Origin: a virus
Length of the DNA stretch: 64,000 nt
IMG/VR virus record: IMGVR_UViG_3300034072_000926
Coordinates: 41,621-105,620 of that record
Direction: 5' to 3' (one strand)
The stretch's first letter is position 1, and the number at the start of each line of letters is the position of its first letter. Position numbers and translations under genes: made by a program. The notes under the pieces are model-generated. The model saw only the letters and a program-made list of their open reading frames with translations. It made no database searches and was not told the DNA's origin. This document shows, one piece after another, positions 3,468 to 54,628 of the stretch.

Positions 3468-4718
3468 TCAAGCTACTTTTGGGTTCTCGAAAACCACAAC
3501 AGGCTCTGCTGTTCCTTCAATGACATCCTTCGTTACTCGGATGGTAACTGCGCCTTGATCCTTCAGATCAGGTAGGTCATATTGGACCTGGATGAGACGC
3601 TTCTCAATAACGCTCCTCAGACCACGCGCACCAGTCTTACGGGTAATAGCGTCGACCGCGACAGCCTTGAGTGCTTCGTCGTCAAATTCAAGCGAGATGT
3701 TCTCAAGCTGGAACATCTTAGAGAACTGCTTCACAAGTGCATTCTTTGGTTCAGTGAGAACACGAACCAACTGCTCCTGGTCTAGCTCTTCCAAGCTAGT
3801 GATAACCGGAAGACGACCCACTAGCTCTGGAATCAAACCGAACTTCTGAAGATCTTCTGGCTCTACGCTATTAAGCAATTTGCTTGAGACCTTGCTGTTG
3901 TCTCCCTTAACGGAAGCACCAAAGCCGATGCTACCCTTGCCCTTGTTCATACGCTTGCCGATGATTTCATCCAAGCCCACGAATGCACCGCCAACAATGA
4001 ACAGGATGTTCTTCGTATTCACTACGGCCATCTCTGCATTTGGATGCTTACGGTTACCCTGTAGGGGCACACGAACTTCACTACCCTCGATAATCTTCAG
4101 CAAAGCTTGCTGAACACCCTCGCCTGACACGTCGCGGCTAATGGACGCGCTATCACCCCTACGGGCTTTCTTATCTACTTCGTCGAGGTAGATAATACCA
4201 CGCTCGGCCTTCGCCACATCATTATCGCATACCTGGAGCAAGCGAGAGATGATGGTCTCAACGTCATCACCCACATAACCAGCCTCAGTCAGCGAAGTCG
4301 CGTCAGCAATTGTGAATGGAACGTCGAGCAACTTCGCGATGCTCTTGGCCATGAGGGTCTTACCAGAACCGGTTGGGCCGAGCAGAAGGATGTTGGACTT
4401 TTCAAGCTCAACATCGTCAACCACAGGATTGGCTAGACGCTTGTAGTGATTATGAACCGCAACTGCCATGACCATCTTGGCATCATTTTGACCAATCACA
4501 TACTGGTCAAGAAACTCTCGGATTTGACGAGGGCTAGGAATCTCACCATCTTTGAGAGACATCTTGGTCTCTGCATTAGTGTCTTCCTTGAGGATGTCAG
4601 CACAAAGCTGGACACAGTCATTGCAGATAAAAACATCAGGTCCAGCAATCAGCTTCTGGACATGTTCTTGCTTCTTTCCGCAGAAGCTGCACGTTAGGGA
4701 CTTTTTGTTCTCGCTCAT
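3468..4718 (-). CDS. clpX: ATP-dependent Clp protease ATP-binding subunit ClpX
   Basis: 416 aa; N-terminal C4 zinc finger CSFCGK..CNDC; Walker A LLLGPTGSGKTLMA; full-length ClpX-like (IGF-loop region, sensor motifs). Confidence 0.9.
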   Translation of the reverse strand: MSENKKSLTCSFCGKKQEHVQKLIAGPDVFICNDCVQLCADILKEDTNAETKMSLKDGEIPSPRQIREFLDQYVIGQNDAKMVMAVAVHNHYKRLANPVVDDVELEKSNILLLGPTGSGKTLMAKSIAKLLDVPFTIADATSLTEAGYVGDDVETIISRLLQVCDNDVAKAERGIIYLDEVDKKARRGDSASISRDVSGEGVQQALLKIIEGSEVRVPLQGNRKHPNAEMAVVNTKNILFIVGGAFVGLDEIIGKRMNKGKGSIGFGASVKGDNSKVSSKLLNSVEPEDLQKFGLIPELVGRLPVITSLEELDQEQLVRVLTEPKNALVKQFSKMFQLENISLEFDDEALKAVAVDAITRKTGARGLRSVIEKRLIQVQYDLPDLKDQGAVTIRVTKDVIEGTAEPVVVFENPKVA

Positions 4719-21178: not shown

Positions 21179-21462
21179 TTTCCGCCGAACCGCAACTTGA
21201 ACAAAGCCGCGAGATCCTTGCTTGGGAAATAGAACTTAGTGACTTCGTATTCACCGTTCTCTGTCGAGCAGGACATATCGAATCCGTGGGCATCGCACCA
21301 ATCAACAACTTCAGGCCCAACCTTGTAGTTGAATGTGTCTCCATATTTGCCACAGGGAACCTTGATCAGGTACGGACGAATATCGAAGACTAGTTCAAAC
21401 TTTCCTTGCCGCTCCTTTTTAAGATTGGCAAGGAAAGCCTCGACTTGCTCTCTGGAAGCCAT
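21175..21462 (-). CDS. FKLxWGG-tail paralog family member
   Basis: C-terminus LAALFKLRFGGK; likely ATG at 21462 forming TAATG with CCA-enzyme stop (track start 21516). Confidence 0.55.
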   Translation of the reverse strand: MASREQVEAFLANLKKERQGKFELVFDIRPYLIKVPCGKYGDTFNYKVGPEVVDWCDAHGFDMSCSTENGEYEVTKFYFPSKDLAALFKLRFGGK

Positions 21463-22616
21463 TATTCGACCTCCAGCAGTTCTTCCTTGGTCTTCGTCCA
21501 GCGACTGAACGTCCAAGCCTGCTTCATCCGATTCAGCTTCTGACCCATTTCCGGACCGGGCTTCATGCCCATATCCAGCAAGTCCTTACCACGAACCGGG
21601 AAGGTCGGGATCTCGAAGTTGCGAGCATAATCGGCCAGCAACGTCTCGCCCTGCACTTCTGCAAAGCTCACGACATGATCCCGAGGGAACTCGTCCCGAG
21701 TCAGCATCACTTCGATCCGCTGTTCGTCCAGGAACACGCCGCGGTTGCGGATCATGTTCCGAACCTTTGCCTCTTCCGGCGAGCTCATCTTCCAGAACTT
21801 GAAGAACTTCTCTTCATCAGTGCTGGCGACCAGCGTAGCCAGTGCGGCCAGCGCATCATCGGCACGGGTCAGTTCAGCGGGGTTGAAGCGGAAGATGCCC
21901 AGTGCCCGATTGACCTGAGTCTTGAAGATCGCGTCCACGATCCGCGTCCGACCCGGCATCTTGGGATCCAGCAGCTTCTGCATTTCCAGCCAGAACCGCT
22001 CAACGCTTACGACGTTCAGCTTGTCCAGAACTTCACCCTCAGCGAAGATATCCAGCGTGTCCTGATCCATCGAAGCATCGAATCGTGCTGCGAAGCGGAA
22101 GTAGCGCAGGATACGCAGGTAGTCCTCTTCAACGCGCTTGCGCGCATCGCCGACGAACCGAACGACCTTGGCTTCCAGATCCGCCCGACCATTGAAGTAG
22201 TCGAAGACTTCGCCCTTCATGTCCATCGACATTGCGTTGATGGTCAGGTCGCGCCGTTCTGCATCGACTTCGAAGCTGCGAGTGAATTCCACCGTTGCAT
22301 GACGACCGTCAGTCTCAGTGTCGATCCGCAGCGTGGTGACTTCGAAGGGTTCGCCATCAACGACCAGCGTAGCCGTGCCGTGCTGGATACCGGTCGGGAT
22401 AAAACCGAACTTGTTGATCTCTGCGATGATCTTCATTTCGTCCGGCGTTGCATCGGTTGCGAAGTCGATATCCTTGGGTTCCACACCCAGCAGCGCATCA
22501 CGAACACAGCCGCCGACGAACCGGACCTCATGACCCGCCATATCGAAGGCTTTCATCAGCTTCTTCGTCTTCGGGGTCATCAGTTTGTCCAGCATGTCGA
22601 TCTCCTTGTTGTTCAT
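21462..22616 (-). CDS. cca: CCA-adding tRNA nucleotidyltransferase
   Basis: 384 aa; FVGGCVRDALLG...DIDFAT head-domain motifs of class II CCA/poly(A) polymerase family. Confidence 0.85.
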   Translation of the reverse strand: MNNKEIDMLDKLMTPKTKKLMKAFDMAGHEVRFVGGCVRDALLGVEPKDIDFATDATPDEMKIIAEINKFGFIPTGIQHGTATLVVDGEPFEVTTLRIDTETDGRHATVEFTRSFEVDAERRDLTINAMSMDMKGEVFDYFNGRADLEAKVVRFVGDARKRVEEDYLRILRYFRFAARFDASMDQDTLDIFAEGEVLDKLNVVSVERFWLEMQKLLDPKMPGRTRIVDAIFKTQVNRALGIFRFNPAELTRADDALAALATLVASTDEEKFFKFWKMSSPEEAKVRNMIRNRGVFLDEQRIEVMLTRDEFPRDHVVSFAEVQGETLLADYARNFEIPTFPVRGKDLLDMGMKPGPEMGQKLNRMKQAWTFSRWTKTKEELLEVE

Positions 22617-27568: not shown

Positions 27569-28159
27569 CTATATGGACAACTTCATGAGCATTATTCGAC
27601 CTGGCGAGTCAGCGAGAGGAACGTCGAGGATTGACGCAACGTGTGGAATGCCGCGCATCAATTGCTCGTAGTCGACCATTCCATTTTCTTCCAGATTGAA
27701 TCTGAACTTGTCGATCGTTGGCCAGTAATTGATCTTGTTTGCAGACAAGCTGCCAGGATGAGTGCCAATACCATCAAGGTAGGCCATGAAGACAAAGGCC
27801 ACCTTCCACTGATCATGCTTGTCGATGAGTTCCCAGATCGAATATGAAAGCTTCTGTGCTGCGCGAGTAAGACGCCCGCGCTCGTAGCCTGTCATATGTT
27901 CGTATGACAGATTAGCCAGCCCTGTTGCGGCCTTGTGGCTGTTCGAGACGTTGCGGAGGACTCTCGTCTGCTTCACAACGTCTCGATAGAGAGATTCAAG
28001 CTCGTTCAAAGCGATCCCAGATCGGCTTGAGATCCTCACGAACTTGTGTGACAATCTCGCCCAGGAAGTTAGTGCCCAGCCAGGTCGTGCGATCCAGCGC
28101 ACGAGGATCATTGGAATCCAGACCAATGCCCCAGATGTTGTCCCAGGGGCTTGCCTCAA
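27569..28159 (-). CDS. hypothetical protein (start uncertain; track ORF overlaps NADAR gene by 163 nt)
   Basis: true start is probably an internal Met (e.g. MTGYERG near 27871). Confidence 0.3.
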   Translation of the reverse strand: MRQAPGTTSGALVWIPMILVRWIARPGWALTSWARLSHKFVRISSRSGIALNELESLYRDVVKQTRVLRNVSNSHKAATGLANLSYEHMTGYERGRLTRAAQKLSYSIWELIDKHDQWKVAFVFMAYLDGIGTHPGSLSANKINYWPTIDKFRFNLEENGMVDYEQLMRGIPHVASILDVPLADSPGRIMLMKLSI

Positions 28160-28553
28160 CTAGCGTGGTTCCATCCGTGCTGAACAGCCATTCCAGATAG
28201 TCCTGGTTCTGAGTGAACTTGGCCATATTGCCGCGATAGACAATGACCTTCATGTTTGCTTCCCAGATGGCTTTGTCGAAGCCCTTGACTAGTCGACCGG
28301 TGGCCTTCTGGACCTTGGGATTGTCGCTAGCCATGATGATCTTCAGTGCATCAGCATCGCCGAACAAGCGAGCCTTCTCTGCCATCATCCACTGCTCTGC
28401 GCAGTTGTATTCGACTTCGCCGATTACGAACGGACTAGGCGCCCACTGGCTTGCCATACCACCGTAAAAGAAAGTAAACTTTTCGCTCATCACCAACCTC
28501 CCGGAACCATCAAATCTGTAGTTTGGGGTGGACCCTTTTGAGTCCTGTCCCAA
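27996..28553 (-). CDS. NADAR (YbiA-like) domain protein
   Basis: 185 aa; FFYGG..S.W..SPF..G..Y...EQWMMAEKA..F.D......I....P...K..GR.V.......W......VM.....KF.QN......L..T....LVEASPWD.IWGIG pattern. Confidence 0.7.
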   Translation of the reverse strand: MGQDSKGSTPNYRFDGSGRLVMSEKFTFFYGGMASQWAPSPFVIGEVEYNCAEQWMMAEKARLFGDADALKIIMASDNPKVQKATGRLVKGFDKAIWEANMKVIVYRGNMAKFTQNQDYLEWLFSTDGTTLVEASPWDNIWGIGLDSNDPRALDRTTWLGTNFLGEIVTQVREDLKPIWDRFERA

Positions 28554-28684
28554 GCAATAATGTCGCGAATATGTGCCAGGATTTCTTCTGGCACAATTTG
28601 ATTGCGCTTCGGCTTGCCATACTTCAAAGCGAGAGCATCTCGCTGTTTTTCTAGCTCTTGCCGAGTCTTAATCATTCGCACCAT
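28490..28684 (-). CDS. small hypothetical protein
   Basis: 64 aa ORF between NADAR and nuclease genes. Confidence 0.25.
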   Translation of the reverse strand: MVRMIKTRQELEKQRDALALKYGKPKRNQIVPEEILAHIRDIIAWDRTQKGPPQTTDLMVPGGW

Positions 28685-29097
28685 CCTGCTCGTTTGCCGC
28701 CAATATACGGTCTTGCATAACCCCTAGTGATCATCATGTCAGCCAATTTCTGACCACCGACGAAAACATCAGCGTCCACTCGACCGCCATACTTATCCCA
28801 CTTGAGATTGGTCAATGTGACCTGACGCCCTGCGGCAACAATCACGCGGGTTGTGAATGCCTTGGCGGCCAGCGCATTGCGCTTCTCGCTCTCACACTTG
28901 CCGCGCATCTCAGGGGTGTCTATGCCCCTTACACGAACGCCGATGCGGCTAAGTTCCGGCGGCAATCCCGGCATATTGATGTAGAAGGTATCACCATCAT
29001 ATACGCCGGTCACGGCATAATTGTAGGACGGTGCAGCGGTTGCCGGAGTTGCGACCAAAGCCGCAATAGCAAAAAGGGTGCTACGAATAAGTTTCAT
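28672..29097 (-). CDS. staphylococcal-nuclease-like (SNase/thermonuclease) secreted nuclease
   Basis: signal peptide MKLIRSTLFAIAALVATPATA; DGDT, RVRGIDTPE, DKYGGR motifs. Confidence 0.75.
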   Translation of the reverse strand: MKLIRSTLFAIAALVATPATAAPSYNYAVTGVYDGDTFYINMPGLPPELSRIGVRVRGIDTPEMRGKCESEKRNALAAKAFTTRVIVAAGRQVTLTNLKWDKYGGRVDADVFVGGQKLADMMITRGYARPYIGGKRAGWCE

Positions 29098-29136
29098 AAC
29101 ACCCTTTTTACATATTTAGATTAGAACGTCAAGCCC

Positions 29137-30342
29137 TTATCGGGCGTTCAGTTCCTTCTGACGCTGCGCTGCGGAGATCAGACCTTTACGCAGGTTCTCC
29201 TGTGCGGCGACCAGGCGCTGTTCGCCTTCGGCGCGCTTTTGCTTGCCCTCAGCGACCAGGTCGATGGACTCGTTGATCGTCTCGAGCAGCTTTGCGTGAG
29301 CATGTTCGGCCGCTTCGACATCGTAGATGCCGCGTTCCATGGCCTTGCGAGCCACCCGATTGCTCTCGTTGAGCTGGTCAGCCGATTGCTTGATCAGGTC
29401 GTTGGTGAAGTCCGTCGCGGCATTAGTTGCCTTGCCGGCTTCGGCAGCACGCCATGCAGCAATCTGCACCGCCATCGTGCGCTTCCACATCGAGACGTTA
29501 TTGAGGATCTGGCTCTGGATCTTCTGTGCCAGGCCCTTGTCGATTGCCTGCACGATACGGATGCTCGGCAGCGCCCGGATGGTGTCATCGCGAGTCAGCA
29601 GCAGGTCATACCGACGACGTTCCAGTTCGTCGCGGGTTTCGGTCATATCCCGCAGTTCCTGCGCGTCGGCCATATCACCGCTTGCATTGGCCTTGGCTTC
29701 CAGTGCCGGAATATGAACGGTGTTGACTTCGTTCATCAGCCATTCGATGGCAGCAATCTGCTCATCCAGATTGTCCAGCATCCCCAGGGTGGCCTGGTAG
29801 AGCTTGTCCATCGCGACCATGTCCTTGAGCATCTGGACACGATGGCCTTCCAGCACGTTCGAGGCTTGGATGATCTGGCCCTCGACGGTCTTGTATTTGT
29901 CGAGGAACTTCTGCAGAACACCGGCGCCGCCCAGCAGCTTTGCGAAGAAGCCGGGCTTCTTTGCTGTCGACAGTGCGCCGAAGTCCAGACCCTTCATGTC
30001 GCGGACCATGGCATTCAGTGCATCGCCGGCCGGACCTGCGTCCTTGGTGCGAACACCCTGCAGAAGCTGTTCCGAGACCTGCGTGGCATTCTTCTGCGCT
30101 TCGACGCCGAAAGTGATGATAGAGCCGCTGTCCTTGAGGTTGATTTTGCTGGCCAGTTCCCTGACACGAGCATCGGACACCTTCGGAGCCGTCCGGCCGA
30201 TTTGTTCATTCAGGGAGACGATTTCCTGTTCCCCGATCCCCGGAACGACCAGTGCATTCTGTGCTGTCGGCATAGGGAGAAGTTCGCCAGTCAGAGACGG
30301 GGTCTCCACGGCGGTAGTGGTCTTGGTCGGATCGCTTGCCAT
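29137..30342 (-). CDS. TelA-like (toxic anion resistance) family protein
   Basis: 401 aa; architecture and central KYKTVEGQIIQASNVLEGHRVQMLKDMVAMDKLYQATLGMLDNLDEQIAAIEWL region resemble TelA/KlaB. Confidence 0.55.
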   Translation of the reverse strand: MASDPTKTTTAVETPSLTGELLPMPTAQNALVVPGIGEQEIVSLNEQIGRTAPKVSDARVRELASKINLKDSGSIITFGVEAQKNATQVSEQLLQGVRTKDAGPAGDALNAMVRDMKGLDFGALSTAKKPGFFAKLLGGAGVLQKFLDKYKTVEGQIIQASNVLEGHRVQMLKDMVAMDKLYQATLGMLDNLDEQIAAIEWLMNEVNTVHIPALEAKANASGDMADAQELRDMTETRDELERRRYDLLLTRDDTIRALPSIRIVQAIDKGLAQKIQSQILNNVSMWKRTMAVQIAAWRAAEAGKATNAATDFTNDLIKQSADQLNESNRVARKAMERGIYDVEAAEHAHAKLLETINESIDLVAEGKQKRAEGEQRLVAAQENLRKGLISAAQRQKELNAR

Positions 30343-30347
30343 TTGTA

Positions 30348-31064
30348 TTAGATTCCCTCGTTGCTGAGACGGCTCTTCATCACCGTCATATTCACGTCAA
30401 AATCCATGACGTCGTTGGACAGAAGCTTGTCGAGCAGCTTCTGAAAGTTGTCGTCGATGGTGTCCAACATATCGTCGAACTGTGCCATCTGCTTCTGCGC
30501 CTCAATATTTCGAGCGCCGGTCTTGCTCAGTTGGGCATAACCTCGAACCAGCTTGATCGTCTCATCCAGGTAGCTGTTGAGCCAGCTCTGTGCGAGAAGA
30601 ACGTCCTTGGGATCGATACGGAAATCCTCAATGATCTTCCGACCGATTGCATCAATATGCTTGATGCGCCGAATAGTGTTGGGAGCCTTGATCTGGGTTG
30701 CTTCTATGAGGATGCGGTCCAGCTTGTCGGTTCCAGTCTTGATCGCTTCCACGACCAGCTTGGGGTCGACCCCGGAGGTCCCTGCCTCAATGTCGTCCAT
30801 ACGCTTGTAGAGATCCTTGATCTCCTGTGCGGTTGCAGCCTTACGACCGGGCCAGAAATACCAGATGCCCAGGCCAGTTGCAGCGCTCAGCGGAGCAGCT
30901 AGTGCAAGGTCACCGATGAAGGAAAGTGGGAAAGCAGCCATGCCGCTTACGAACACACATGCGGCGCCTCCGAGGGCAGCAACTTTACTCACTACGTCTT
31001 TTGTCATTGTTTCCTCGCTTAACACTGGATCCCTTATAGCAAGAATTACCAGTATGTCTACCAA
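30348..31064 (-). CDS. membrane protein (2-3 TM) in TelA/flotillin block
   Basis: 238 aa; hydrophobic segments near N-terminus and in GGAACVFVSGMAAFPLSFIGDLALAAPLSAATGLGIWYFW. Confidence 0.45.
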   Translation of the reverse strand: MVDILVILAIRDPVLSEETMTKDVVSKVAALGGAACVFVSGMAAFPLSFIGDLALAAPLSAATGLGIWYFWPGRKAATAQEIKDLYKRMDDIEAGTSGVDPKLVVEAIKTGTDKLDRILIEATQIKAPNTIRRIKHIDAIGRKIIEDFRIDPKDVLLAQSWLNSYLDETIKLVRGYAQLSKTGARNIEAQKQMAQFDDMLDTIDDNFQKLLDKLLSNDVMDFDVNMTVMKSRLSNEGI

Positions 31065-31118
31065 AGAAAAGAAAAGGGCGACATTGCTGCCGCCCCTTTC
31101 CCAATTGTTCCGAAAAAC

Positions 31119-32870
31119 TTAGAGTTCGTCGGGATTGATACCAGCCAGCTTCTGCAGCTCTGCCTTTTCCTGTGCCGAAATTGCTTCGGCCGAACCACGG
31201 GCCTTACGGACCGGAGCAGTCCTCACCGGCGCAGGAGCACCAACAACTTCCAGCGAACCATCTTCGTTCAGCGGAGCAGCGGCAGCTTCGACCAGACCGT
31301 TCAGACCACGGCTCAGGTCAACACCCAGTTCGCGAGCCATTTCGTCAATGACCGGAACCTGCAGTCGGTAACCCAGCATCGAGTTGGTCAGGTCAGTTGC
31401 GAGATTGCCAGTGGTCTGAGTGCCACTGATTGCGCCTTCGCCGGCCTGGCCACCAAGGCCGCCCAGACCACCCATCTGCACAACGCGGATGCTGTCGACC
31501 TTCTCCATCGGCTTGGTCATCTTTTCCATGATGGTCGGCATGGATTCGATAAGCGCCTTGCGGAGGTTGTAAGCCATCTGCGCCGGAGTGACGACGTTAG
31601 CAGCTTCGTTGAGGGCGCGCTGACCTTCGGATTCAACTTCATAACGCTTTGCGTCAGCGTCGATGAGTCGTTCCTTGGCCTTAGCCTGCGAGTCGGCAGC
31701 TTCGAGCTCAGCAGCAGCCATAACGCGGATACGAGTTGCTTCCTGTTCAGCTGCCTGCTCTGCCTGGATGACCGCAACGCGCTTTGCACGTTCTGCCGAA
31801 GCCTCAGCTTCAACGGTCTTCACTGCTTCAGTTGCACGAACCTGTTCTGCACGAGCATTGTCTGCTGCTGCGCGGGCCTTCGATTCCTGCTCCGACTTCT
31901 CAGCAACAGCAATACGCGACTGCTGGCTTGCAATCTCGAGAGCCTGAGCTGCCTCAGTCTCAGAGACCTTGATTGCGCGCTCCTTAGCAACGCGAGCCTG
32001 TTCGGTCGTCTTGGCGGCTTCGATTTCGGCCAGGTCCGATTCACGCTTGCGCTCTGCACGGGTCTGAGCCAGTTCAGCTTCCTGAGCTGCACGACGGGTT
32101 TCGACTTCACGCTGCTGTTCGAGGGTAGCGAACTCGTTCTGCTGCTTGATTTCCAGCGAACGCTTGTTGGCTTCGAAGTTCTTCTGCTCAATCGCAACGC
32201 GGTTGTCAGCTTCGATTTCGTTACGCTCCTTACGACGCGTCTCAGTGACCTGAGTCAGCTTCGCAAGACCTTCAGCGTCGAAGGCGTTGTTGGGGTTGAA
32301 GAACTTAACGTCCGTCTGGTCAAGACCAGTCAGCGAGACCGATTCCAGTTCCAGGCCGTTCTTCTTCAGGTCTTCCGCAACAGTGTTCTGAACCTTCTGA
32401 ACGAAGTCACCGCGCTTTTCATGCAGGTCCTGCATGTCCATCGAAGCAGCCGCAGCGCGCAGGGCGTCGACGAACTTACCTTCGACCAGACCAGCAAGCT
32501 GATCAGGTGCCATCGTGCGACGGCCAAGGGTCTGTGCCGCAGTGGCAATTGCAGTAGCATCAGGCGCGACGCGAACATAGAACTCTGCACGAACGTCGAC
32601 GCGCAGCCGGTCCTTGGTGATCAGCGAAGCTTCGCCACCGCCACGCTGAACAGTGAGGCGCAGGGTCTGCATATTGATCGGGATAGTTTCGTGCAGGATA
32701 GGAAGCACGATTGCACCGCCGTCCTTCACAACCTTTTCGCCGCCGAAACCGGTGCGGACGAAAGCCAGTTCCTTCGATGCACGATGGAACATCTTGGTCA
32801 TGATTAGGCCGAGGACGATAATTCCAAGGACAATCACGCCTGTAACAATTAGGCCAAACTGAAGACTCAT
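31119..32870 (-). CDS. flotillin-like SPFH/band-7 protein (YqiK-like)
   Basis: 583 aa; N-terminal TM, SPFH domain, long E/A/R/K-rich coiled-coil (flotillin repeats). Confidence 0.8.
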   Translation of the reverse strand: MSLQFGLIVTGVIVLGIIVLGLIMTKMFHRASKELAFVRTGFGGEKVVKDGGAIVLPILHETIPINMQTLRLTVQRGGGEASLITKDRLRVDVRAEFYVRVAPDATAIATAAQTLGRRTMAPDQLAGLVEGKFVDALRAAAASMDMQDLHEKRGDFVQKVQNTVAEDLKKNGLELESVSLTGLDQTDVKFFNPNNAFDAEGLAKLTQVTETRRKERNEIEADNRVAIEQKNFEANKRSLEIKQQNEFATLEQQREVETRRAAQEAELAQTRAERKRESDLAEIEAAKTTEQARVAKERAIKVSETEAAQALEIASQQSRIAVAEKSEQESKARAAADNARAEQVRATEAVKTVEAEASAERAKRVAVIQAEQAAEQEATRIRVMAAAELEAADSQAKAKERLIDADAKRYEVESEGQRALNEAANVVTPAQMAYNLRKALIESMPTIMEKMTKPMEKVDSIRVVQMGGLGGLGGQAGEGAISGTQTTGNLATDLTNSMLGYRLQVPVIDEMARELGVDLSRGLNGLVEAAAAPLNEDGSLEVVGAPAPVRTAPVRKARGSAEAISAQEKAELQKLAGINPDEL

Positions 32871-32891
32871 TACATTCTCCTACTGAGTCGG

Positions 32892-33536
32892 TTAAATCTT
32901 ACGCACATTGAAGGCGTAGGAATTCTTGCTGTTAGGACCGATTAACACCGCGCTTTCTCCCACATCAATATTCTCGTCACCTGTGGCGAAAACAAAAATG
33001 TAGTGGTCCTGACCATGCTGGTCGGTAACACGGAGTGATCCACTCACTTCGCTGGTTGCTGGTCCCATAACCAATACCCCGACCTGTCCCGTGAGACTCT
33101 CAATCGTAACGGCCGAGGTAATGTCCTGAGGCATTATGCGTGAGAACGCCGTAGAGCCCCAACGAACAAAGGGTAGGGTGAGAGCAGTCACGACCGGGAT
33201 ACTCAAGCCAAGGGGCGCGAGCGAACCAGAGAACCCACTGTAAGCCCATTGTGCGCTATACCCGAGAGCAGTGAATACAGTGCTGAAAATAACAATGAAC
33301 ACCATCGCGGGAACATGACCCGGATTGATCCAATTGAAGAATCCACCATCTACCTCGAGGTAGTCTGGGATGCCATTGTTATTGAGGTCGGCGGTGAAAT
33401 CGACATCACTATGGAAGATCGAAAGGCCGAGGATCAGACCGATGATCTCTACAAGGAATATCGCGGCCAATAGACAACCTGTGACCATGAAGGGCAGGTT
33501 AGCTGGGTCGGTGATGAATAAGATTAGGTCGTTCAT
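32892..33536 (-). CDS. YqiJ/NfeD-like inner membrane protein
   Basis: 214 aa; multiple TM segments plus C-terminal OB-fold-like region; sits immediately upstream of the flotillin gene, as in yqiJK operons. Confidence 0.55.
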   Translation of the reverse strand: MNDLILFITDPANLPFMVTGCLLAAIFLVEIIGLILGLSIFHSDVDFTADLNNNGIPDYLEVDGGFFNWINPGHVPAMVFIVIFSTVFTALGYSAQWAYSGFSGSLAPLGLSIPVVTALTLPFVRWGSTAFSRIMPQDITSAVTIESLTGQVGVLVMGPATSEVSGSLRVTDQHGQDHYIFVFATGDENIDVGESAVLIGPNSKNSYAFNVRKI

Positions 33537-33571
33537 ATCTCGGGCATAACGACCCGATGACTATAACGTCA

Positions 33572-33871
33572 TTATTCTTTTGGTGGGAGAGCGTCTGCTA
33601 GTCTAGCAAGAACCTGGCCATGGCAAGGCGAGGGATGACACCAGCATCCAAGCTTCTTGCCCTTTAATTCATGGAGTGCAGCCATAAGGGTTGGCTGTTC
33701 AACGATCCAATCGGCAAATTGCTGGATAACTTCTTCACGGGTGCCATCACGACCAACGATAAATGGATTGCCCCACTTAGTCTTACGGTCAATGCGAACG
33801 TCAAAGTGATCCACCTTGAGGTTGACCACTGTGGTTGAGGGCGGGGGCCAGGAAAAGAGTTCGTCTGCCAT
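33572..33871 (-). CDS. DUF4326-like protein
   Basis: 99 aa; KWGNPF and LGCWCHP.PCHG motifs. Confidence 0.5.
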   Translation of the reverse strand: MADELFSWPPPSTTVVNLKVDHFDVRIDRKTKWGNPFIVGRDGTREEVIQQFADWIVEQPTLMAALHELKGKKLGCWCHPSPCHGQVLARLADALPPKE

Positions 33872-34031
33872 ACTTCTACTTATCGAGCAGACATGAGTAA
33901 CCCAGGAGGTTTTTAATCCTCCTGGGTCATTCCGACCTTCGGCATTTGAGAGACTACCGAGGGCTGTGATTTATATAATGTGGGGAGAAGTGAGTTGCAA
34001 GACTTGCAATTGCAATAAGCAACTTAATCTG

Positions 34032-34104
34032 TGCTGTCTATGGGACTTGAACCCATGACCTCTTCATTACCAATGAAGTGCTACTACCACTGAGCTAAGA
34101 CAGC
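34032..34104 (-). tRNA. tRNA-Thr (anticodon GGU)
   Basis: 73 nt cloverleaf with 7-bp acceptor stem GCTGTCT/AGACAGC, anticodon stem CTTCA/TGAAG, loop TTGGTAA, T-arm ATGGG-TTCAAGT-CCCAT; CCA not encoded. Confidence 0.8.
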
Positions 34105-34138
34105 ATGTTCCGATGTTCTCTTTATAACACCGACACTC

Positions 34139-34146
34139 TTATTTAG
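34139..34146 (-). promoter_or_regulatory. late-promoter-like CTAAATAA upstream of tRNA
   Basis: about 35 nt upstream of the tRNA 5-prime end on the minus strand. Confidence 0.3.
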
Positions 34147-34150
34147 CAAT

Positions 34151-34492
34151 TTATTTCAGGAGAAGATTTAGGGCTTTTGTCATATCATCGAAGGAAGCTG
34201 GCTTCTCAATGAGATTAAAACCATGATAGCAAGACGAGAGACGATGGAGTTCACCGGTGCAGATCAAACCCGGCGTGAGGGTCTTCCTCATCATATCAGC
34301 AACGGGTTCAGAAGTGCCATCAAGTAATGTCACGTCGAGGATCACTCCGGAGAAGCGATTCACTCTGATCAGTTCCATGGCCTCTTTAACAGTCCCGACC
34401 ATGGCCGCGACGTCCACTCCCTCTTCTTTGCAGACTTCTTCCCAATATAATTGCAGGAAGGCCTCGTCTTCGACGATAAGGACAGTGGACAT
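34151..34492 (-). CDS. stand-alone response-regulator receiver (REC/CheY-like) domain protein
   Basis: 113 aa; VLIVEDE start, acidic pocket, phosphoacceptor-like D in ILDVTLLDG, conserved T and K positions. Confidence 0.6.
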   Translation of the reverse strand: MSTVLIVEDEAFLQLYWEEVCKEEGVDVAAMVGTVKEAMELIRVNRFSGVILDVTLLDGTSEPVADMMRKTLTPGLICTGELHRLSSCYHGFNLIEKPASFDDMTKALNLLLK

Positions 34493-34500
34493 GATAACTC

Positions 34501-35019
34501 CTAGAAACTGAGTTTCGCCAGCATAACCTGATCGACCGTCCCCTTGTCGAGGATCATTGCACTCGCTGGTTTGCCGACACGGACAAGATCCGTTGCGGTA
34601 TTGCCTTGGGCACTCTTGAAGAGCTTTGCGTAGATAGTGCCCTTGTCACTGATCTTCTTCACAGTGCCCATTACCATATCCACTCGGGCACCTTCTGTGC
34701 CGCGCGGGAAGATAATCGTATGACCAATCTCGATGGTGCGACCCATGAGATCATTGAAGCGGGGTGTCTCAGGATCTTCGGCAAAATGAGTGCCGCCCTT
34801 CCAATTCGGAAGGTGTTCTAGCTCGCTGCCTTTGATCCAGAATCCTCGACGCGTTCCGACGGCCAATTGATAATCATGCGCGCTGTAATATTTGGACCGG
34901 ACACTCATGACGCGTCCGACGGTGCCTTCTCGAAGGCCAGCAATAACCCGCACGAATTGCGGACCATCTTCCATACTAGCAATAAGGGACATCGCTGCCT
35001 GGTAGTTATTGAGATTCAT
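34501..35019 (-). CDS. hypothetical protein (172 aa), C-terminus VMLAKLSF
   Basis: ORF track; the C-terminus faintly resembles the paralog family tail. Confidence 0.45.
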   Translation of the reverse strand: MNLNNYQAAMSLIASMEDGPQFVRVIAGLREGTVGRVMSVRSKYYSAHDYQLAVGTRRGFWIKGSELEHLPNWKGGTHFAEDPETPRFNDLMGRTIEIGHTIIFPRGTEGARVDMVMGTVKKISDKGTIYAKLFKSAQGNTATDLVRVGKPASAMILDKGTVDQVMLAKLSF

Positions 35020-35274
35020 TTGCGACCCTCAAGAAAAGTTTCGATCTGTAGCAGCGACCTTCGGATAACCCCTCAGGCATTTTATTATTGCAACTAAAAT
35101 GCGCGTTGCACGTTTTAGCATGTTGCGTTGCAAACTATTACAAGATATGGCATTAGTAAAGTGCTACCCGATAAAAAATCTAGGTTTTCTGTAGGTTACC
35201 ACCTATAGCCTGGGAGAAGTCACAGAAAAGCGCAGGTTATTCCAAATAACCCACGCCCTTCTTGATTAACTATA

Positions 35275-35569: not shown

Positions 35570-35639
35570 GAGAAAAGGTGGCCCGTCCTGTTGTTCGGTG
35601 GAGCCATACCGCACCTAGGGAGTTGATCCCCTAGGGATT
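35570..35639. repeat. copy A of ~70-nt direct repeat with internal hairpin
   Basis: about 88% identical to 37054-37122; hairpin CCTAGGG/CCCTAGG. Confidence 0.6.
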
Positions 35640-35699
35640 GTGAGGCATAGGAGTCTACCGAAGCTTCTTCCTAACCTCGCTGCCGTTAGGCAGAAAATA

Positions 35700-36011
35700 T
35701 CAACAGCCGAGAGAGATTTTCTCAGCCTTTAGTTCATCAACTAGATCATTAAGACAGTCGACTTCACTATCGAAGATATCAGGAAAATCGGAAATAATAC
35801 CTTGAATTTCGTAGATGACTTCAATGAGGTGATCTACATCCTCACATCGTCCAGAATAGCGAGCAACATCCTCATACGGGAGCTCAGCATCAGCGCCTTC
35901 AGGATCATACCCGATCTTGGCACGAGACTCTTCTACTGCCTTCTTAACAGCAGGGCAAACCTGCCCACTAACCATATTAGCGAGCAGGAGAACCAAGGCA
36001 ACATCTGTCAT
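35700..36011 (-). CDS. hypothetical protein (103 aa)
   Basis: ORF track. Confidence 0.4.
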   Translation of the reverse strand: MTDVALVLLLANMVSGQVCPAVKKAVEESRAKIGYDPEGADAELPYEDVARYSGRCEDVDHLIEVIYEIQGIISDFPDIFDSEVDCLNDLVDELKAEKISLGC

Positions 36012-36291: not shown

Positions 36292-37077
36292 GTGGGAGGA
36301 TCCGACCCCTCCCACAACCCGGCTTGGAGCATCCAGGCTGTCCCTTACTGGTATTTATTGGAGCCCATTATGCGCCATCAGCACGACTACTATGGATTCG
36401 TCTATCTCTGGCGAGACTCTGAAACTAATCGATTCTATATCGGCAGTCATTACGGTAGCACAACCGACTCCTATATTGCGAGTTCCAAGTGGTTGAAATC
36501 CGCATATAAGAAGCGTCCTCATACCTTTAGGCGACGTATCCTTCAATACCTCACAACAGACGACAAGAAGCTGCTTCATCAAATAGAACAGGCTTGGCTT
36601 GATTTGATCAAGGATGAAGAATTAGGTAAGCGTTATTATAATCTTAAGAAATTCGCAGCCGGTGGGAATGGTTCTGCTAATAAAGGTAAAACTAGAATTT
36701 CTTGGAGGAAAGGCTTGTCTAATGAAATGATCCAACTTCGTAAAGATGGTCTATTCTGTGTCATGTCTTGTGACAAGCCTAAGCCAAGAAACCAGAGGGT
36801 TACGAAGCCTAAAAAGGTAACTATTCCAAGGAAACCTACACCGATCATTGATAAGGACTGTGAACTTTGTGGAACAACTTTCCAAACAAAGAGAGCCGGT
36901 CGATTCTGTAGCAAATCTTGTTCAAACAAAAATAACGGAAAGAATGTAGACCGAGCAGCAAATGGTCGCAAAGGTTCCGAGAAGATGCGAGAGATTGCTA
37001 CAAATCGTATTAGACATTACGATTCAGACGGATCATGGACTTGGATGTATAAAGAGAAAAGTGACCCGTCCTGTTGA
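36292..37077 (+). CDS. GIY-YIG homing endonuclease (Seg-like) with C-terminal zinc finger
   Basis: YGFVYLWRD...RFYIGSH GIY-YIG motif; CELCG...CSKSC; real start probably Met at about 36370. Confidence 0.75.
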   Translation: MGGSDPSHNPAWSIQAVPYWYLLEPIMRHQHDYYGFVYLWRDSETNRFYIGSHYGSTTDSYIASSKWLKSAYKKRPHTFRRRILQYLTTDDKKLLHQIEQAWLDLIKDEELGKRYYNLKKFAAGGNGSANKGKTRISWRKGLSNEMIQLRKDGLFCVMSCDKPKPRNQRVTKPKKVTIPRKPTPIIDKDCELCGTTFQTKRAGRFCSKSCSNKNNGKNVDRAANGRKGSEKMREIATNRIRHYDSDGSWTWMYKEKSDPSC

Positions 37078-40202: not shown

Positions 40203-42509
40203 TTAGAGCTTGCAGGAATCGCAATCTTCGTCGTCTAGAATCTCTTCTAGTTCTTCATCACTCTTTGTCTCGTTGACGACGAGGGTGACGTCTTCCTGAC
40301 CGTCATAAGTGTTGAAGTAATAGAGGTTCTTGCCGCCATACTTGTAGAAGTTCAACAAGTCAGTGATCATGTCCTTCATGGAAATCTCACGATTCTCATA
40401 ATGGTCAGGATTGTAGCTGGTGTTGACACTTGCGCTCTGATCCAGATACTTGTTAAGAACACAAGCAACCTTCAGATAACCGGCAGGCCCGCGCTGATCC
40501 CAAAGTAGTTCATACTTGTTCTTCAGCTTGCCAATCTCAGGCACAACCTGCTTGAGCACGCCATGCTTGGAGACCTTCTCAGAAACCAGCGCACGAACAG
40601 GTTCAATGCCATTGGTCGAGTTGGACAACTGAGCAGAAGTCTCTGCGGGCATCAGAGCCATCAGAGTGGTATTGCGGATACCATTCTTGATCAGCTGAGC
40701 ACGGAGATCTTCCCAAGGCATACGAGTCGTTGGTTCGACTAGTTCATCCAGATCACGCTTGTAGGTGTCAATGGGCATAACACCTTGGCTATACTTGGAC
40801 TTGTAAGAACCTGGGCAGGCTCCCTTTTCCAAAGCCAGATCGGCTGAAGCCTTGATCAGGTAGTAGGACATGCCTTCCATGTATTCGTCGACCAGTGGAA
40901 GAGCAGCATCGTCATACTTCAGACCATTCTTCGCAAGGAAGTAGGCCAGGTTGATGATACCAACGCCGAGAGGACGAAGTTCCTTCGTAGCAAGTTCTGC
41001 GGCCTTGACTGGGTAATTCTGGTAGCTGAGAATTTCATCAAGGAAGCGAACAACCAGCTTTGCAGGCTTTTCGAAATCATGAGGTGTCTTGACACGACCC
41101 CAGTTGAGTGCGCTGAGGGTGCAAAGGCTGATGCGACCATTGGGATCGTCGAAGTGCTGCATTGGAACCGTAGGAAGTGTGATTTCCTGGCAGAGGTTGC
41201 TCTGCGTGATCGGAGCCAACTCAGGGATATACGAACCATGCGAGTTTGCGTGGTCAATGTTCATGAGGTAGATACGACCAGTTTCCTTACGCTCGGTCAT
41301 GAACGTAATAAACACATCGAGGGCCTTCATTGACTTCTTACGAATCTTTGGATCAGCTTCGTAATGAGTGTAGAGGCGATCAAACTCGTCCTGATCAGCA
41401 TAGAACGCATCAAGGAGACCCGGAACATCCTTAGGTGAGAAGAACGTAATGTCTCCACCTTCCACAAGACGCTTATACATCATGCGGTTAAACAGGAAGC
41501 TATAGTCGAGGTGACGAATACGATTCTGTTCAGTGCCCTTGTTGTTCTTCAGAACAATCAGGTCCTCAAATTCGTAATGCCAAAGCGGGAAGTGGACAGT
41601 AGCCGCACCACCGCGAACACCGCCTTGCGAACAGCTCTTAACTGCTGCCTGCATCCAGCGAACAAACGGCAAAAGACCAGTATGTTCAGCATCGCCATTG
41701 CGGATCTTCGAACCAAGAGCACGAACACGACCCATGTCAATACCAAGCCCTGCCTTCTGGCTGATATACTTGACAACGCTGCTATTTGTGGCAACGAGAG
41801 AATCAAGAGAGTCGTCAGTCGAAATGGTAACACACGAGCTGAACTGCTTCTGTGGCGTCCTCAGACCTGCCATGATGGGCGTAGGCAGGCTGATGTCGAA
41901 CTGGCTTACTGCATCGTAGAAATCCTTGATGTAGTCCATGCGGGTATCCTTGGGATACGCCATGAAGCCAATCGCGCTGATCAGAACCAGAGCAATCTGC
42001 GGGGTTTCAAAGAACTGACCGGTAACGCGGTCCTTGACGAGATACTTGCCGCGCCACTGTTCCATGCCAGCGTAGGCAATCAAGTCGTCTCGCGTATGCT
42101 TGACGATCTTCTCAAGCTTCTTCCACTCTTCGTCGTTGAAGTTGTCGAGCAGTTCCTGAGTGTAATGACCCTCAGCGACATTCTTCTCAACAACCTGCTT
42201 AACAGTCCAAGGCTCATAACGGCCATAGACTTCCTTACGAAGCTGGTAGCTAGCCAGACGACTAGCAACGAACTGGTAGTTTGGAGTTTCCTCGCTGATC
42301 AGTTCGCTTGCGCTCTTAACGAGCAGTTCGTGAATCTTGGTGCTCAAGACTCCGTCTTCTAGCTGAAGCTGGGCGCGGAGTTCTACCTCGGAAGGTGAAA
42401 CACCGGCAAGGTCTTCGCAGGCCCAGAAGACAACCTTATGAATCTTTTCGAGGTCTAATGCCTCTTTGCGGCCGTCACGCTTGACAACCATAATTGGTGT
42501 GTTGCCCAT
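40203..42509 (-). CDS. nrdA: ribonucleotide reductase class Ia alpha subunit
   Basis: ATP-cone VVKRDGRKE..D..KI; catalytic Cys/Asn/Glu regions; C-terminal CxxC tail; start set at MGNTPIM (42509) rather than track start 42557, because CTAAATAT sits 32 nt upstream of it. Confidence 0.9.
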   Translation of the reverse strand: MGNTPIMVVKRDGRKEALDLEKIHKVVFWACEDLAGVSPSEVELRAQLQLEDGVLSTKIHELLVKSASELISEETPNYQFVASRLASYQLRKEVYGRYEPWTVKQVVEKNVAEGHYTQELLDNFNDEEWKKLEKIVKHTRDDLIAYAGMEQWRGKYLVKDRVTGQFFETPQIALVLISAIGFMAYPKDTRMDYIKDFYDAVSQFDISLPTPIMAGLRTPQKQFSSCVTISTDDSLDSLVATNSSVVKYISQKAGLGIDMGRVRALGSKIRNGDAEHTGLLPFVRWMQAAVKSCSQGGVRGGAATVHFPLWHYEFEDLIVLKNNKGTEQNRIRHLDYSFLFNRMMYKRLVEGGDITFFSPKDVPGLLDAFYADQDEFDRLYTHYEADPKIRKKSMKALDVFITFMTERKETGRIYLMNIDHANSHGSYIPELAPITQSNLCQEITLPTVPMQHFDDPNGRISLCTLSALNWGRVKTPHDFEKPAKLVVRFLDEILSYQNYPVKAAELATKELRPLGVGIINLAYFLAKNGLKYDDAALPLVDEYMEGMSYYLIKASADLALEKGACPGSYKSKYSQGVMPIDTYKRDLDELVEPTTRMPWEDLRAQLIKNGIRNTTLMALMPAETSAQLSNSTNGIEPVRALVSEKVSKHGVLKQVVPEIGKLKNKYELLWDQRGPAGYLKVACVLNKYLDQSASVNTSYNPDHYENREISMKDMITDLLNFYKYGGKNLYYFNTYDGQEDVTLVVNETKSDEELEEILDDEDCDSCKL

Positions 42510-52721: not shown

Positions 52722-52967
52722 ATGGGTGATCTATTCAAAAGTGTAGTCGAAATGATCGCGAAGGGCGAAGCAGGAGCTCTGACGGCTATTCTCCTAGCTA
52801 TCATTGGTGTCTTGGGTTGGTATTGTTTTCGCCTGATGAAGCAACTGGAAAAGAAGGACGAGAAGATCTATAAGATCATCGACGACTATTCCAAGAACAA
52901 CATCACTATCACTGACGCTCTAAACGGCCTCAAGACGGTGCTTATTGAGATTAAGGCAAAGCTCTAA
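52722..52967 (+). CDS. small single-TM protein
   Basis: 81 aa; LTAILLAIIGVLGWYCF TM; TAATG overlap with the PAS gene. Confidence 0.4.
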   Translation: MGDLFKSVVEMIAKGEAGALTAILLAIIGVLGWYCFRLMKQLEKKDEKIYKIIDDYSKNNITITDALNGLKTVLIEIKAKL

Positions 52968-54628
52968 TGTGGTTTAAAGATCGGAAGGAAAAGAAGAAGC
53001 AGCGTGAAGCTGTTTTGAAAGCGGCGCTTGACTCTAGCGAAGCCCTTGAAAAGGCCGCTAAAGGCACGATGAACCTTGCCGAAGATGTAACCAAAACCCT
53101 TCAAAGCAAAATTGACGACTATGCTCGGCAGATTGACCAAACGTCTAGTCTGCTGAGCGACGCTCTCATTCTAGTTGATGACCACGGAGTCATCGAAAGT
53201 TTCAATCCAGCGGCTGAAAAGATGTTTGGTATTGCTAGGAGACATATCAGGGGGAAGAGCATTTCTAAGCTCTTCGAATTCCCCAAAGATACTATCATCG
53301 ACCCAGTGTTCATGGATGAACTAACCGTAAAGGTCAATGAGAATGATCCTGCAGCCACTGTCCATTATGAAGACTTCATGGGCATCCGTAAAGATGGCAT
53401 GACTTTCCATGTGGACGTCAGTGCCAGCAAATTCACCAGGAACAACTCGAAAGTCCATTACATCATCCTAGTCCACGATGTGACCCACAAGGTGGCGAAT
53501 AGCAAAATGGTCGAAGATCTTGCTCAGAGGAACATGGAACTCCTTGCTACCATTGATGCATCAAATACCGGATTCATTATCCTAAGCCCTGATGGTAGCG
53601 ACTTCAAGATCAACTTCGTCAACATGGGCTTTAGTCGTCTCACTGGGTATTCTAGGACTCAGATCAAGAATATGAGCCTTATGGATCTTCTTGGCATCGA
53701 GCAAACTTTCTGGTCGGTTCGTCGTAGCCTTCTTGAACAGAAAGAAGCACGTCACGAAGTCCAGCTAGAGATCGGAACATGTCAGACTATCTGGTTTGAC
53801 ATTCAGATCACACCAGTGTTCAACGATGGTATCTGTAGTCAGTGGATCTTAGTGTTCTATGACACTACTGCACTAAAGAAAGCATATCACGATCTCAGGA
53901 AGAGCGAATCACATTTCAAGGCGTTTAGTGATGCAAGTTCCGAGTCCATGCTTATCCACAACTTTGGTCAGGTCATTGATTGGAACGATCGCCTCAACGC
54001 ATTGACTGGCTATACAGATGAAGAGATTGAGAAACTCATGCCTCTTGATCTTGTCCATCCTCTCGAACGTGAGAAGATCAGAGAAGAGGTTCATTTAACT
54101 GGTAACAATAGCTATGAAACGCTATTCATGACCAAACAAGGCGATGTTCGTGAGGTTGCAATCAACAGTCGTTCCATTGAATGGGATAACACTGATGCAA
54201 GGATTTCAATTGTTCGAGATGTAACCGAATACAAGGATATCGAGACTCAGTTGAAGACTGCAAGGGAGCGTTATCGCACGGTCATCGATAACACGATCGA
54301 TATGGTCATTTGCTTCAATAGCGATTTCGAGATTACCTTCTCGAATCAGACCTTCCGTGACTACTATGAAGTAGAGCTAGAAGACATCAATGGGTTCTCA
54401 CTCTTGGAGATCATCCCTGAGACTGACCATAAGAAGTTCAAGGAATATATGATGGAGATCGCCCCTGGGAATGATGTTCGTCGAGGTATTCACCGTGTCC
54501 AGCGTCATGGAGACATTAGGATGCAGGATTGGATCGACCGTGGCATCTTTGATGAAGATGGAAATCTCATTGAAATTCAGAGTGTTGCTCGAGACGTAAC
54601 TAGCCTTTTGCCTCCACCTACTACTTGA
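52967..54628 (+). CDS. four-PAS-domain protein without recognisable output domain
   Basis: 553 aa; four repeats of about 110 aa each with a PAS-like core (..D..G.I...N......G........G........). Confidence 0.65.
   Translation: MWFKDRKEKKKQREAVLKAALDSSEALEKAAKGTMNLAEDVTKTLQSKIDDYARQIDQTSSLLSDALILVDDHGVIESFNPAAEKMFGIARRHIRGKSISKLFEFPKDTIIDPVFMDELTVKVNENDPAATVHYEDFMGIRKDGMTFHVDVSASKFTRNNSKVHYIILVHDVTHKVANSKMVEDLAQRNMELLATIDASNTGFIILSPDGSDFKINFVNMGFSRLTGYSRTQIKNMSLMDLLGIEQTFWSVRRSLLEQKEARHEVQLEIGTCQTIWFDIQITPVFNDGICSQWILVFYDTTALKKAYHDLRKSESHFKAFSDASSESMLIHNFGQVIDWNDRLNALTGYTDEEIEKLMPLDLVHPLEREKIREEVHLTGNNSYETLFMTKQGDVREVAINSRSIEWDNTDARISIVRDVTEYKDIETQLKTARERYRTVIDNTIDMVICFNSDFEITFSNQTFRDYYEVELEDINGFSLLEIIPETDHKKFKEYMMEIAPGNDVRRGIHRVQRHGDIRMQDWIDRGIFDEDGNLIEIQSVARDVTSLLPPPTT

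Follow-up and report, generated by a model that had tools for sequence, protein, structure and literature searches.

On its minus strand, the 64,000-nt stretch of viral DNA analyzed here (the window; positions 41,621 to 105,620 of IMG/VR virus record IMGVR_UViG_3300034072_000926) carries a block of five genes, spanning 28672-33536, that encode a YqiJ protein, a YqiK-type flotillin, an XpaC-family membrane protein, TelA and a staphylococcal nuclease (SNase) homologue. We verified the five open reading frames where an original prediction, made from the letters alone, had placed them: all run in one direction, and consecutive genes are spaced by 21, 111 (up to the XpaC ATG), 5 and 39 nt (Table 1). 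All five proteins exceed the curated cut-offs of Pfam.

The YqiJ protein matches YqiJ_N (PF21001, 63.7 bits, E 2e-17) and YqiJ_OB (PF07290, 31.3 bits, E 2e-7), and its hydropathy profile contains three hydrophobic segments, read as three transmembrane passes. Its gene ends 5' of the flotillin gene in the same arrangement as the Erythrobacter pair. The flotillin matches Band_7 (70.9 bits, E 2e-19) and Flot (PF15975, 119.9 bits, E 9e-35), has a transmembrane segment at residues 5-23 by hydropathy, and is rich in alanine (23%) and glutamate (18%) over residues 190-400. It is ~50-53% identical to alphaproteobacterial (~53% for Erythrobacter) and plasmid flotillins, and because it scores only 83 bits against the NCBIfam FloT equivalog NF058507, whose cut-off is 700, we regard it as YqiK-like and not as a FloT orthologue.

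The third protein matches PF10112 (Halogen_Hydrol/XpaC; 100.9 bits, E 1e-28) over profile positions 8-191 of 191, with a hydrophobic N-terminus that we read as an anchor, followed by a cytoplasmic helical domain. An alternative TTG start at 31064 would give the 238 aa first proposed for this protein; gene callers choose the ATG at 31007, and since the TTG falls within a conserved terminator hairpin, the ATG is most likely the true start. The first description as a membrane protein stands, the length given there probably does not, and the family is XpaC. Directly 3' lies TelA, which matches PF05816 over profile positions 1-330 of 332 (270 bits, E 3e-80) and has no transmembrane segment by hydropathy. 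The SNase homologue matches PF00565 (33 bits, E 9e-8) and keeps the equivalents of D21, R35, D40, T41, E43 and R87, in an alignment to S. aureus nuclease A. A signal-peptide-like N-terminus and two invariant cysteines occur in all six phage orthologues, which fits export of a disulfide-bonded SNase to the periplasm.

The assignments to YqiJ, to a flotillin with transmembrane anchor, SPFH domain and Glu/Ala-rich coiled coil, to TelA, and to an SNase are thus borne out by profile scores, hydropathy and composition. Two parts of the original framing fared worse. The block had been described as composed of phage-defence-associated modules, and none of its five genes matched PADLOC-DB at E <= 0.01, the neighbouring NADAR protein alone giving a match. 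It had also been linked to TelA/Ter systems, and no Ter-family Pfam domain was found in any of the 10 genes scanned (27996-35019), so this is not a Ter operon. Pfam detected no PspA domain in any block gene, PHROGs holds no family for YqiJ or XpaC, and a sequence search of solved structures returned no relatives for any of the five proteins.

Table 1. Features of the flotillin-TelA locus and its neighbours, in window coordinates.
Feature	Position	Strand	Basis or remark
p172, 172-aa soluble conserved protein with weak KOW-like signal	34501..35019	-	tblastn
Stand-alone receiver (REC)-like protein, 113 aa	34151..34492	-	Pfam Response_reg 28.0 bits, below the 30.2 cut-off
tRNA-Thr(GGT), between the REC gene and DUF4326	34031..34104	-	ARAGORN; Rfam tRNA 68 bits
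DUF4326 protein, 99 aa, 35 nt 5' of YqiJ	33572..33871	-	PF14216, E 6e-28
YqiJ (NfeD-like), flotillin partner; polytopic membrane protein with C-terminal OB fold, 214 aa	32892..33536	-	PF21001 + PF07290
YqiK-type flotillin, 583 aa: N-terminal transmembrane segment, SPFH, coiled coil, Flot, variable tail	31119..32870	-	Band_7 + Flot
LQKLAGI codons, flotillin residues 572-578	31137..31157	-	Motif specific to flotillins linked to XpaC-TelA
Intrinsic-terminator-like hairpin and T-run, just 3' of the flotillin stop	31069..31102	-	GC-rich, 15-bp stem
Sigma-70-like promoter before XpaC: TAGACA-16 nt-TATAAG, TGn extended -10	31033..31060 (approx.)	-	Read from the sequence
XpaC-family membrane protein, TelA partner, 219 aa from ATG	30348..31007	-	PF10112
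TelA (YaaN/KlaB family), soluble, all-helical, 401 aa	29137..30342	-	PF05816
SNase homologue, putative signal peptide, 141 aa	28672..29097	-	PF00565; phrog_452 endonuclease
NADAR-domain protein, 3' neighbour, context outside the core	27996..28553	-	PF08719, E 4e-45; PADLOC PDC-M42C

The core of the block recurs in three sublineages of huge phages of ~390-480 kb, in which TelA identity to the window falls as low as ~40%. Most contigs with TelA and flotillin homologues at 47-100% identity are of jumbo-phage size. Sublineage A, the clade of the window, comprises L009-L012 together with the IMG/VR contigs L095-L101, seven distinct sequences of which six were sampled a second time as L120-L124, L129 and L130, with TelA 47-100% identical and the array p172, REC, (tRNA-Thr), DUF4326, YqiJ, flotillin, XpaC, TelA, SNase, NADAR. 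Sublineage B, with TelA ~40% identical, consists of the cultured Sinorhizobium phage Phosso (L001) and L125, where p172, YqiJ, flotillin, XpaC and TelA follow one another between other flanks. Sublineage C (L136 and L137; TelA 44% identical) has p172, DUF4326, YqiJ, flotillin, XpaC, a small putatively secreted two-Cys protein, TelA and SNase. The flanks therefore vary from one sublineage to another, SNase adjoins TelA in A and C, and p172 accompanies the block in all three, immediately 5' of YqiJ in Phosso and L125. By tblastn, p172 is found at 31-86% identity in all loci in which flotillin is linked to XpaC-TelA and is absent from the unlinked ones. This synteny across many relatives shows that the block is not a one-off pickup of host genes, an outcome that had been set beforehand as refuting the first interpretation.

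Comparing the window with L120 gave dN/dS (nonsynonymous over synonymous substitution) ratios of 0.04 for p172, 0.08 for XpaC, 0.14 for TelA, 0.15 for YqiJ and 0.18 for flotillin, a range of 0.04-0.18 over all genes tested in which dS is high and partly saturated; these values point to purifying selection on the block. Among sequenced phages, full-length homologues of the block flotillin are very rare: of 50,697 GenBank phage records, that of Phosso alone has one. A megablast search of the block DNA against GenBank phages gave no match. A scan of viral contigs with a single protein likewise returned no match, the homologues having been found by alignment-based scans. Several further huge-phage contigs of 376-543 kb (L094/L128, L131, L132, L133 and L135) carry a flotillin without XpaC-TelA, with YqiJ detectable 5' in most, so that flotillin carriage by huge phages is wider than the block; the neighbors of the pair in L094 are Gad2-like, SspB and HNH genes. 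In sublineage C, the insert between XpaC and TelA (L136 9488-9904, L137 9495-9920) encodes a protein of 138-141 aa that has a hydrophobic segment at its N-terminus and conserves two cysteines, and a class I aminoacyl-tRNA synthetase gene lies 3' of SNase in L136 (11726-14572).

The flotillins linked to XpaC-TelA share a feature at their C-terminal end. Following a variable Pro/Ala-rich linker, a phi-Q-(K/R/E)-LAGI C-terminal peptide (for example ...EKAELQKLAGINPDEL) is present in 10/10 linked flotillins examined and absent from 7/7 distinct unlinked ones (Erythrobacter, L094/L128, L131, L132, L133, L135 and L126); an E. coli plasmid flotillin also lacks it. In a set of 120 flotillins from databases, the phage clade has the motif, or something close to it, throughout, and the 43 lower-ranked sequences lack it, bar a single near-variant (IQHLAGI). 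In a prospective test we took two flotillins with the motif (P0137 and P0138) for which no TelA contig had been matched beforehand, and found XpaC and TelA following in 2/2.

Flotillin and XpaC are separated by a conserved regulatory junction. The terminator-like hairpin keeps its position in L004, L009-L012, L001, L125, L136 and L137, where the stems differ yet stay complementary, and an element of the form TAGAC(A/T)-N16-17-TAnnnn stands at the same place in 9/9 phage loci examined; hairpin and promoter are both at the same position in all 9, which cover the three sublineages. Neither TAGACA-type nor TTGCAA-type promoter motifs are enriched across the window. Because the conserved terminator and promoter separate flotillin from XpaC, we divide the block into two predicted transcription units, YqiJ-flotillin (with p172 and what follows it) and XpaC-TelA-SNase. 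Its five closely spaced genes are therefore not a single tight operon.

To see how TelA is accompanied in bacteria, we assembled the 80 bacterial loci whose TelA is closest (37-44% identical), most of them from Alpha- and Gammaproteobacteria, and added a Thiorhodovibrio locus (L008), giving 81 in all. No flotillin or YqiJ lies within 8 kb of TelA in any of them, and the closest named bacterial flotillin, that of Erythrobacter, has YqiJ as its only companion. XpaC lies 5' of TelA in 54/81 loci (tblastn). A different SPFH protein, combining Band_7_1 (PF13421) with GYF_2, lies 3' of TelA in 64/81, on the same strand in 63 of these and at most 200 nt away in 27, and the same set has a double zinc-ribbon membrane protein in 46 loci and DUF2927 in 38. 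A Paracoccus replicon, for example, encodes TelA, DUF2927, the SPFH protein and the zinc-ribbon protein consecutively. This delineates a widespread proteobacterial operon of XpaC, TelA, (DUF2927), Band_7_1+GYF_2 and double zinc-ribbon membrane protein (L014-L092; e.g. L139 4959-9677). We found no description of this operon, or of the phage flotillin-TelA block, in the searchable literature.

We had considered the pairing of TelA with an SPFH protein to be a phage invention, and withdrew this idea since a divergent SPFH protein accompanies TelA in 64/81 bacterial loci. TelA-SPFH coupling is thus a bacterial theme, and it is the version with flotillin, YqiJ and the tail motif that appears, within the data searched, to be confined to phages. 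The bacterial operon also invites comparison with B. subtilis pspA-ydjGHI, in which the SPFH protein YdjI is needed for PspA to be at the membrane (PMC8581546): the Band_7_1/GYF_2 and zinc-ribbon proteins are a YdjI/YdjG-type pair, and TelA is found in the operon position of PspA. Flotillins and YdjI modulate membrane fluidity and organize complexes (PMC8581546), and a survey of phage-shock-protein systems found that some genomes extend flotillin-YqiJ pairs with CesT/Tir-PspA (PMC11237479). In Firmicutes, xpaC and telA influence both how well cells tolerate nisin, daptomycin and tellurite and how phospholipid microdomains are laid out; the pair responds to envelope stress, and the xpaC phenotype requires an intact telA (PMC6811118, PMC12791056).

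Combining these results, we tentatively favor, at somewhat less than even confidence, a model in which the block is a virus-encoded inner-membrane module that joins a flotillin-YqiJ scaffold to XpaC-TelA and preserves the host membrane. Flotillin, anchored through its N-terminal helix and paired with polytopic YqiJ, would oligomerize into an SPFH cage or microdomain on the inner membrane of the host, on its cytoplasmic side. The LAGI peptide of the flotillin tail would then recruit or organize TelA, which XpaC would tether to the membrane, in a step that would parallel the membrane recruitment of PspA by YdjI in B. subtilis. The resulting sub-membrane assembly would keep the membrane of the infected cell intact and energized through the long infection of a huge phage and under envelope insult, and the Sec-exported nuclease would degrade DNA in the periplasm. 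We infer the physical interaction, the protection of the membrane, when the genes are expressed and what the nuclease acts on. The functions first suggested for the locus, namely membrane remodelling, superinfection exclusion and nuclease action on incoming DNA, are plausible candidates.

Several observations weigh against such a module. The linked flotillins may form one clade, in which case the association between motif and linkage may reflect one or few evolutionary events and not 10; and p172, which co-occurs just as strictly, is for this reason an equally plausible partner of the tail. SNase is absent from this site in Phosso and L125, huge-phage contigs L094/L128 and L131-L133 have the YqiJ-flotillin pair only, and phages GAP32 and XaC1 carry TelA only. 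AlphaFold models of TelA built from 21 and 81 sequences are all-helical with a long hairpin and of low confidence (predicted local distance difference test scores of 57 and 60), and Foldseek found nothing significant for TelA in the PDB (best E 0.02, template-modelling score <= 0.3); its top matches are ClyA-family toxins, with PspA at rank 39, none of them significant. Finally, the conserved terminator and separate promoter split the block, whose halves may be expressed independently, and GC content at third codon positions (GC3) is 0.66 in XpaC and 0.72 in TelA versus 0.58 in YqiJ, 0.59 in flotillin and 0.53 +/- 0.07 in the background, so that the raised GC of the block is partly a trait of the second unit.

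This split and the differing GC3 of the halves are what would be expected if YqiJ-flotillin and XpaC-TelA were host-derived cassettes that, together with a nuclease, are chance neighbors inherited together and share no joint function. Each pair is indeed found alone in bacteria, plasmids and other phages, and huge-phage genomes are broadly collinear, so neighbors persist. The terminator-promoter junction keeps this explanation alive, yet three observations weaken it: the junction and both of its signals outlast changes in the flanks down to ~40% protein identity, the tail motif of the flotillin goes with the presence of XpaC-TelA, and in bacteria TelA is coupled, independently, with a different SPFH protein. 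On balance, we consider independent cassettes quite improbable.

If the block does act jointly at the membrane, its role could be to shut out other phages: flotillin and TelA would alter the inner membrane against later DNA entry, and SNase would destroy DNA reaching the periplasm. In T4-infected cells, periplasmic endonuclease I breaks down excluded superinfecting DNA. Here, a putatively exported SNase with intact catalytic residues adjoins TelA in two of the three sublineages, and the sigma-70-like promoter would permit early expression by the host polymerase. Moreover, Iyer et al. (2021) proposed that jumbo-phage TelA and Ter proteins act against superinfection via sub-membrane structures (PMC7824862). 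However, the block proteins bear no similarity to any known exclusion protein, Phosso and L125 do without the nuclease in their block, and the bacterial homologues act in envelope stress and not in blocking DNA entry; we judge exclusion as the primary role to be unlikely.

A second specific role would be counter-defence, with the module repairing or buffering the inner membrane against abortive-infection effectors that permeabilize or depolarize it. In bacteria, both parent modules have ties to the tolerance of agents that damage membranes, and the block is strongly retained in very large phages. In addition, the bracketing by the accessory neighbors NADAR (PDC-M42C) and DUF4326, with SIR2 beside NADAR in L011, looks like an ADP-ribose- or NAD-related counter-defence neighborhood. 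Against this, the case is built on context, no known anti-defence protein resembles the block proteins, and the proposal overlaps with the membrane-preserving module, the two differing only in what damages the membrane. Counter-defence as such seems to us doubtful, on the improbable side. Superinfection exclusion and protection from abortive infection are both specific versions of the membrane module, and the present data do not separate them.

The same parts could also serve lysis timing or assembly, by delaying holin-driven collapse or by offering a membrane platform on which replication or virion assembly takes place. Huge phages probably have long infection cycles, and flotillins generally organize membrane protein complexes (PMC11237479). 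Nonetheless, no holin, endolysin or spanin was recognized among the neighboring genes scanned, and the block has no link to structural genes beyond general proximity, which leaves this role very improbable. A far-reaching form of the favored membrane module would make TelA a functional analogue of PspA/ESCRT-III, that is, a sub-membrane helical polymer placed only by the SPFH cage, for which a lineage of huge phages would have re-engineered a flotillin with LAGI as a dedicated docking peptide. The resulting virus-controlled repair and exclusion structure would keep the cell energized, block later DNA entry with the periplasmic nuclease as executioner, and blunt host suicide systems that attack the membrane. 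We hold this strong form to be a long shot.

Such a module would matter beyond this locus. The mechanism of TelA ("toxic anion resistance") and XpaC has gone unexplained for decades, and bacterial flotillin-NfeD pairs are poorly understood. TelA has been coupled to SPFH proteins repeatedly and independently, to Band_7_1 in Proteobacteria and to flotillin in huge phages, which offers a fresh angle on its function, and the LAGI tail that tracks XpaC-TelA is a concrete candidate for an interaction. The hypothesis is directly testable because the cultured phage Phosso carries the core and its host, Sinorhizobium meliloti, is genetically tractable. Should the module turn out to protect or remodel the membrane to the benefit of the virus, it would represent a new class of phage host-takeover function, with relevance to superinfection exclusion and to resistance against abortive-infection defences aimed at the membrane.

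The genes around the block are less constant. For p172, a KOW motif was detected in 5/6 members (best E 0.006); a role as a NusG-like antiterminator was considered and rejected (hhalign probability 0.3%), and its profile gave marginal matches only against solved structures (E >= 0.3). Upstream of p172, a leader of ~150 nt (window 35020-35215, minus strand) follows a terminator and a CTAGACTGG promoter-like element and contains conserved AACAACGC, GTTGC and AGATCGAA motifs, with equivalents in L009-L012, L120, L121 and L123; no Rfam family matched this leader. The REC gene adjoins the block in the window clade only. In L009 (1-738), L010 (1-1394), L011 (1-1880) and L012 (169-1875), a hybrid histidine kinase (PAS-HisKA-HATPase-REC) is encoded two genes 5' of p172 in addition to the stand-alone receiver protein; the window has the receiver protein and no kinase at the equivalent place, and encodes a 553-aa multi-PAS protein at 52967-54628 (plus strand). 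Two-component signaling encoded by a phage is unusual. The tRNA-Thr(GGT) gene occupies the same place in L009, L010, L095 and L096 and was not detected in L011, L012 or L098. DUF4326 is present in sublineages A and C, while NADAR is separated from the block in L011, where it is followed by a SIR2 gene (locus L011 13283-14490), and was not detected within the locus in L001, L125, L136 or L137.

The window as a whole is ~99% identical to a 389-kb huge-phage assembly (GCA_902726455.1), GIY-YIG homing-endonuclease insertions setting the two apart, and its gene order agrees with that of another assembly (L118). Its genes include NrdA/B, a split topoisomerase II, a DnaB-type helicase, ClpX (zinc finger and AAA_2; 3468-4718, minus strand) and a CCA-adding/poly(A) polymerase-family enzyme (21462-22616, minus strand). 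NrdA is ~60% identical to that of GAP32/CBB-type jumbo phages, and a virion protein finds its best match in Sinorhizobium phage Phosso (469 kb) and its next in Agrobacterium phage Atu_ph07. The nearest cultured relatives are thus these alphaproteobacterial phages of ~470-490 kb, which makes the label "T4-like", under which the phage was first described, a loose one, and we infer that the host of the window phage is likely alphaproteobacterial. Two related contigs (L100 1590-2088, L101 1501-2008) encode a permuted two-piece tmRNA of alphaproteobacterial style with the tag peptide ANDNTVEVALAA, and the window itself has a very weak alpha_tmRNA-like match at 35577-35700 (13.5 bits, E 0.8). GIY-YIG (SegE-like/LEM-3-like) homing endonuclease genes lie at 36292-37077 (plus strand) in the window and at 10786-11643 in L004, and their differing sites in ~99%-identical strains imply active endonuclease mobility in the phage population.

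Each half of the block has counterparts in known systems. E. coli yqiJ-yqiK and B. subtilis yuaF(nfeD2)-floT resemble the phage pair in having a three-transmembrane OB-fold protein followed by a flotillin in the same order; unlike them, the phage pair is virus-encoded, LAGI-tailed and followed 3' by XpaC-TelA. The same YqiJ-flotillin pair, at ~50% identity and likewise borne by a mobile element, occurs on conjugative enterobacterial plasmids: it is found on 331 plasmid records, 266 of them conjugative and mostly from E. coli. In the E. coli plasmid pJNE170426-1 (IncFIB, IncK2/Z; L138 4282-6623) the pair lies between a NusG-family gene and thin-pilus (pil) genes. No XpaC-TelA was found near the pair in this one plasmid locus examined, and no E. 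coli plasmid is among the TelA matches listed.

The second half shares its pair and gene order with the Firmicutes xpaC-telA(yaaN) dyad (B. subtilis xpaC-yaaN, L. monocytogenes lmo1966-1967, E. faecium xpaC-telA), from which it differs in sitting behind a flotillin and ahead of a nuclease; the window TelA is 22-35% identical to Firmicute-type TelA copies in phage records. TelA is also known from other mobile elements, standing alone or linked to Ter in the phages GAP32, CBB and XaC1 and as klaB/telA on plasmid RK2. The GAP32/XaC1-type TelA is only ~22% identical to that of the window and has TerD or hypothetical proteins as neighbors, TerD being seen next to TelA only at the unrelated XaC1 locus; no flotillin, YqiJ or XpaC was detected at GAP32/CBB/XaC1-type loci. 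A relationship between TelA and the major vault protein (MVP) has been published (Suprenant 2007, cited in PMC3762200). We did not reproduce it, as no MVP chain appeared in the PDB profile search (E <= 1) or among the 50 fold matches listed.

The closest parallels in overall layout are two bacterial operon types that combine an SPFH protein with a helical sub-membrane protein. In the proteobacterial XpaC-TelA-Band_7_1 operon, as in the phage block, TelA has both an SPFH protein and a membrane protein for partners. There, however, the SPFH protein is of the soluble Band_7_1 type and lies 3' of TelA, whereas the phage block places a membrane-anchored flotillin and YqiJ 5' of TelA, with a terminator and promoter between, and no DUF2927, GYF or zinc-ribbon proteins were found at the phage loci. 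The CesT/Tir-PspA operons with flotillin and YqiJ/YuaF (and in some cases an AAA+ ATPase) attach an adaptor and a helical sub-membrane protein to the flotillin-YqiJ pair, as the phages do (PMC11237479); the phages have XpaC-TelA in place of CesT/Tir-PspA and no AAA+ ATPase. No sequence relationship between TelA and PspA has emerged, and the likeness to PspA-SPFH operons is one of architecture only. What is new here is thus a predicted virus-borne module of SPFH and helical sub-membrane proteins in which the SPFH part is a flotillin with its YqiJ partner, bearing a docking-like motif and an attached, putatively secreted nuclease.

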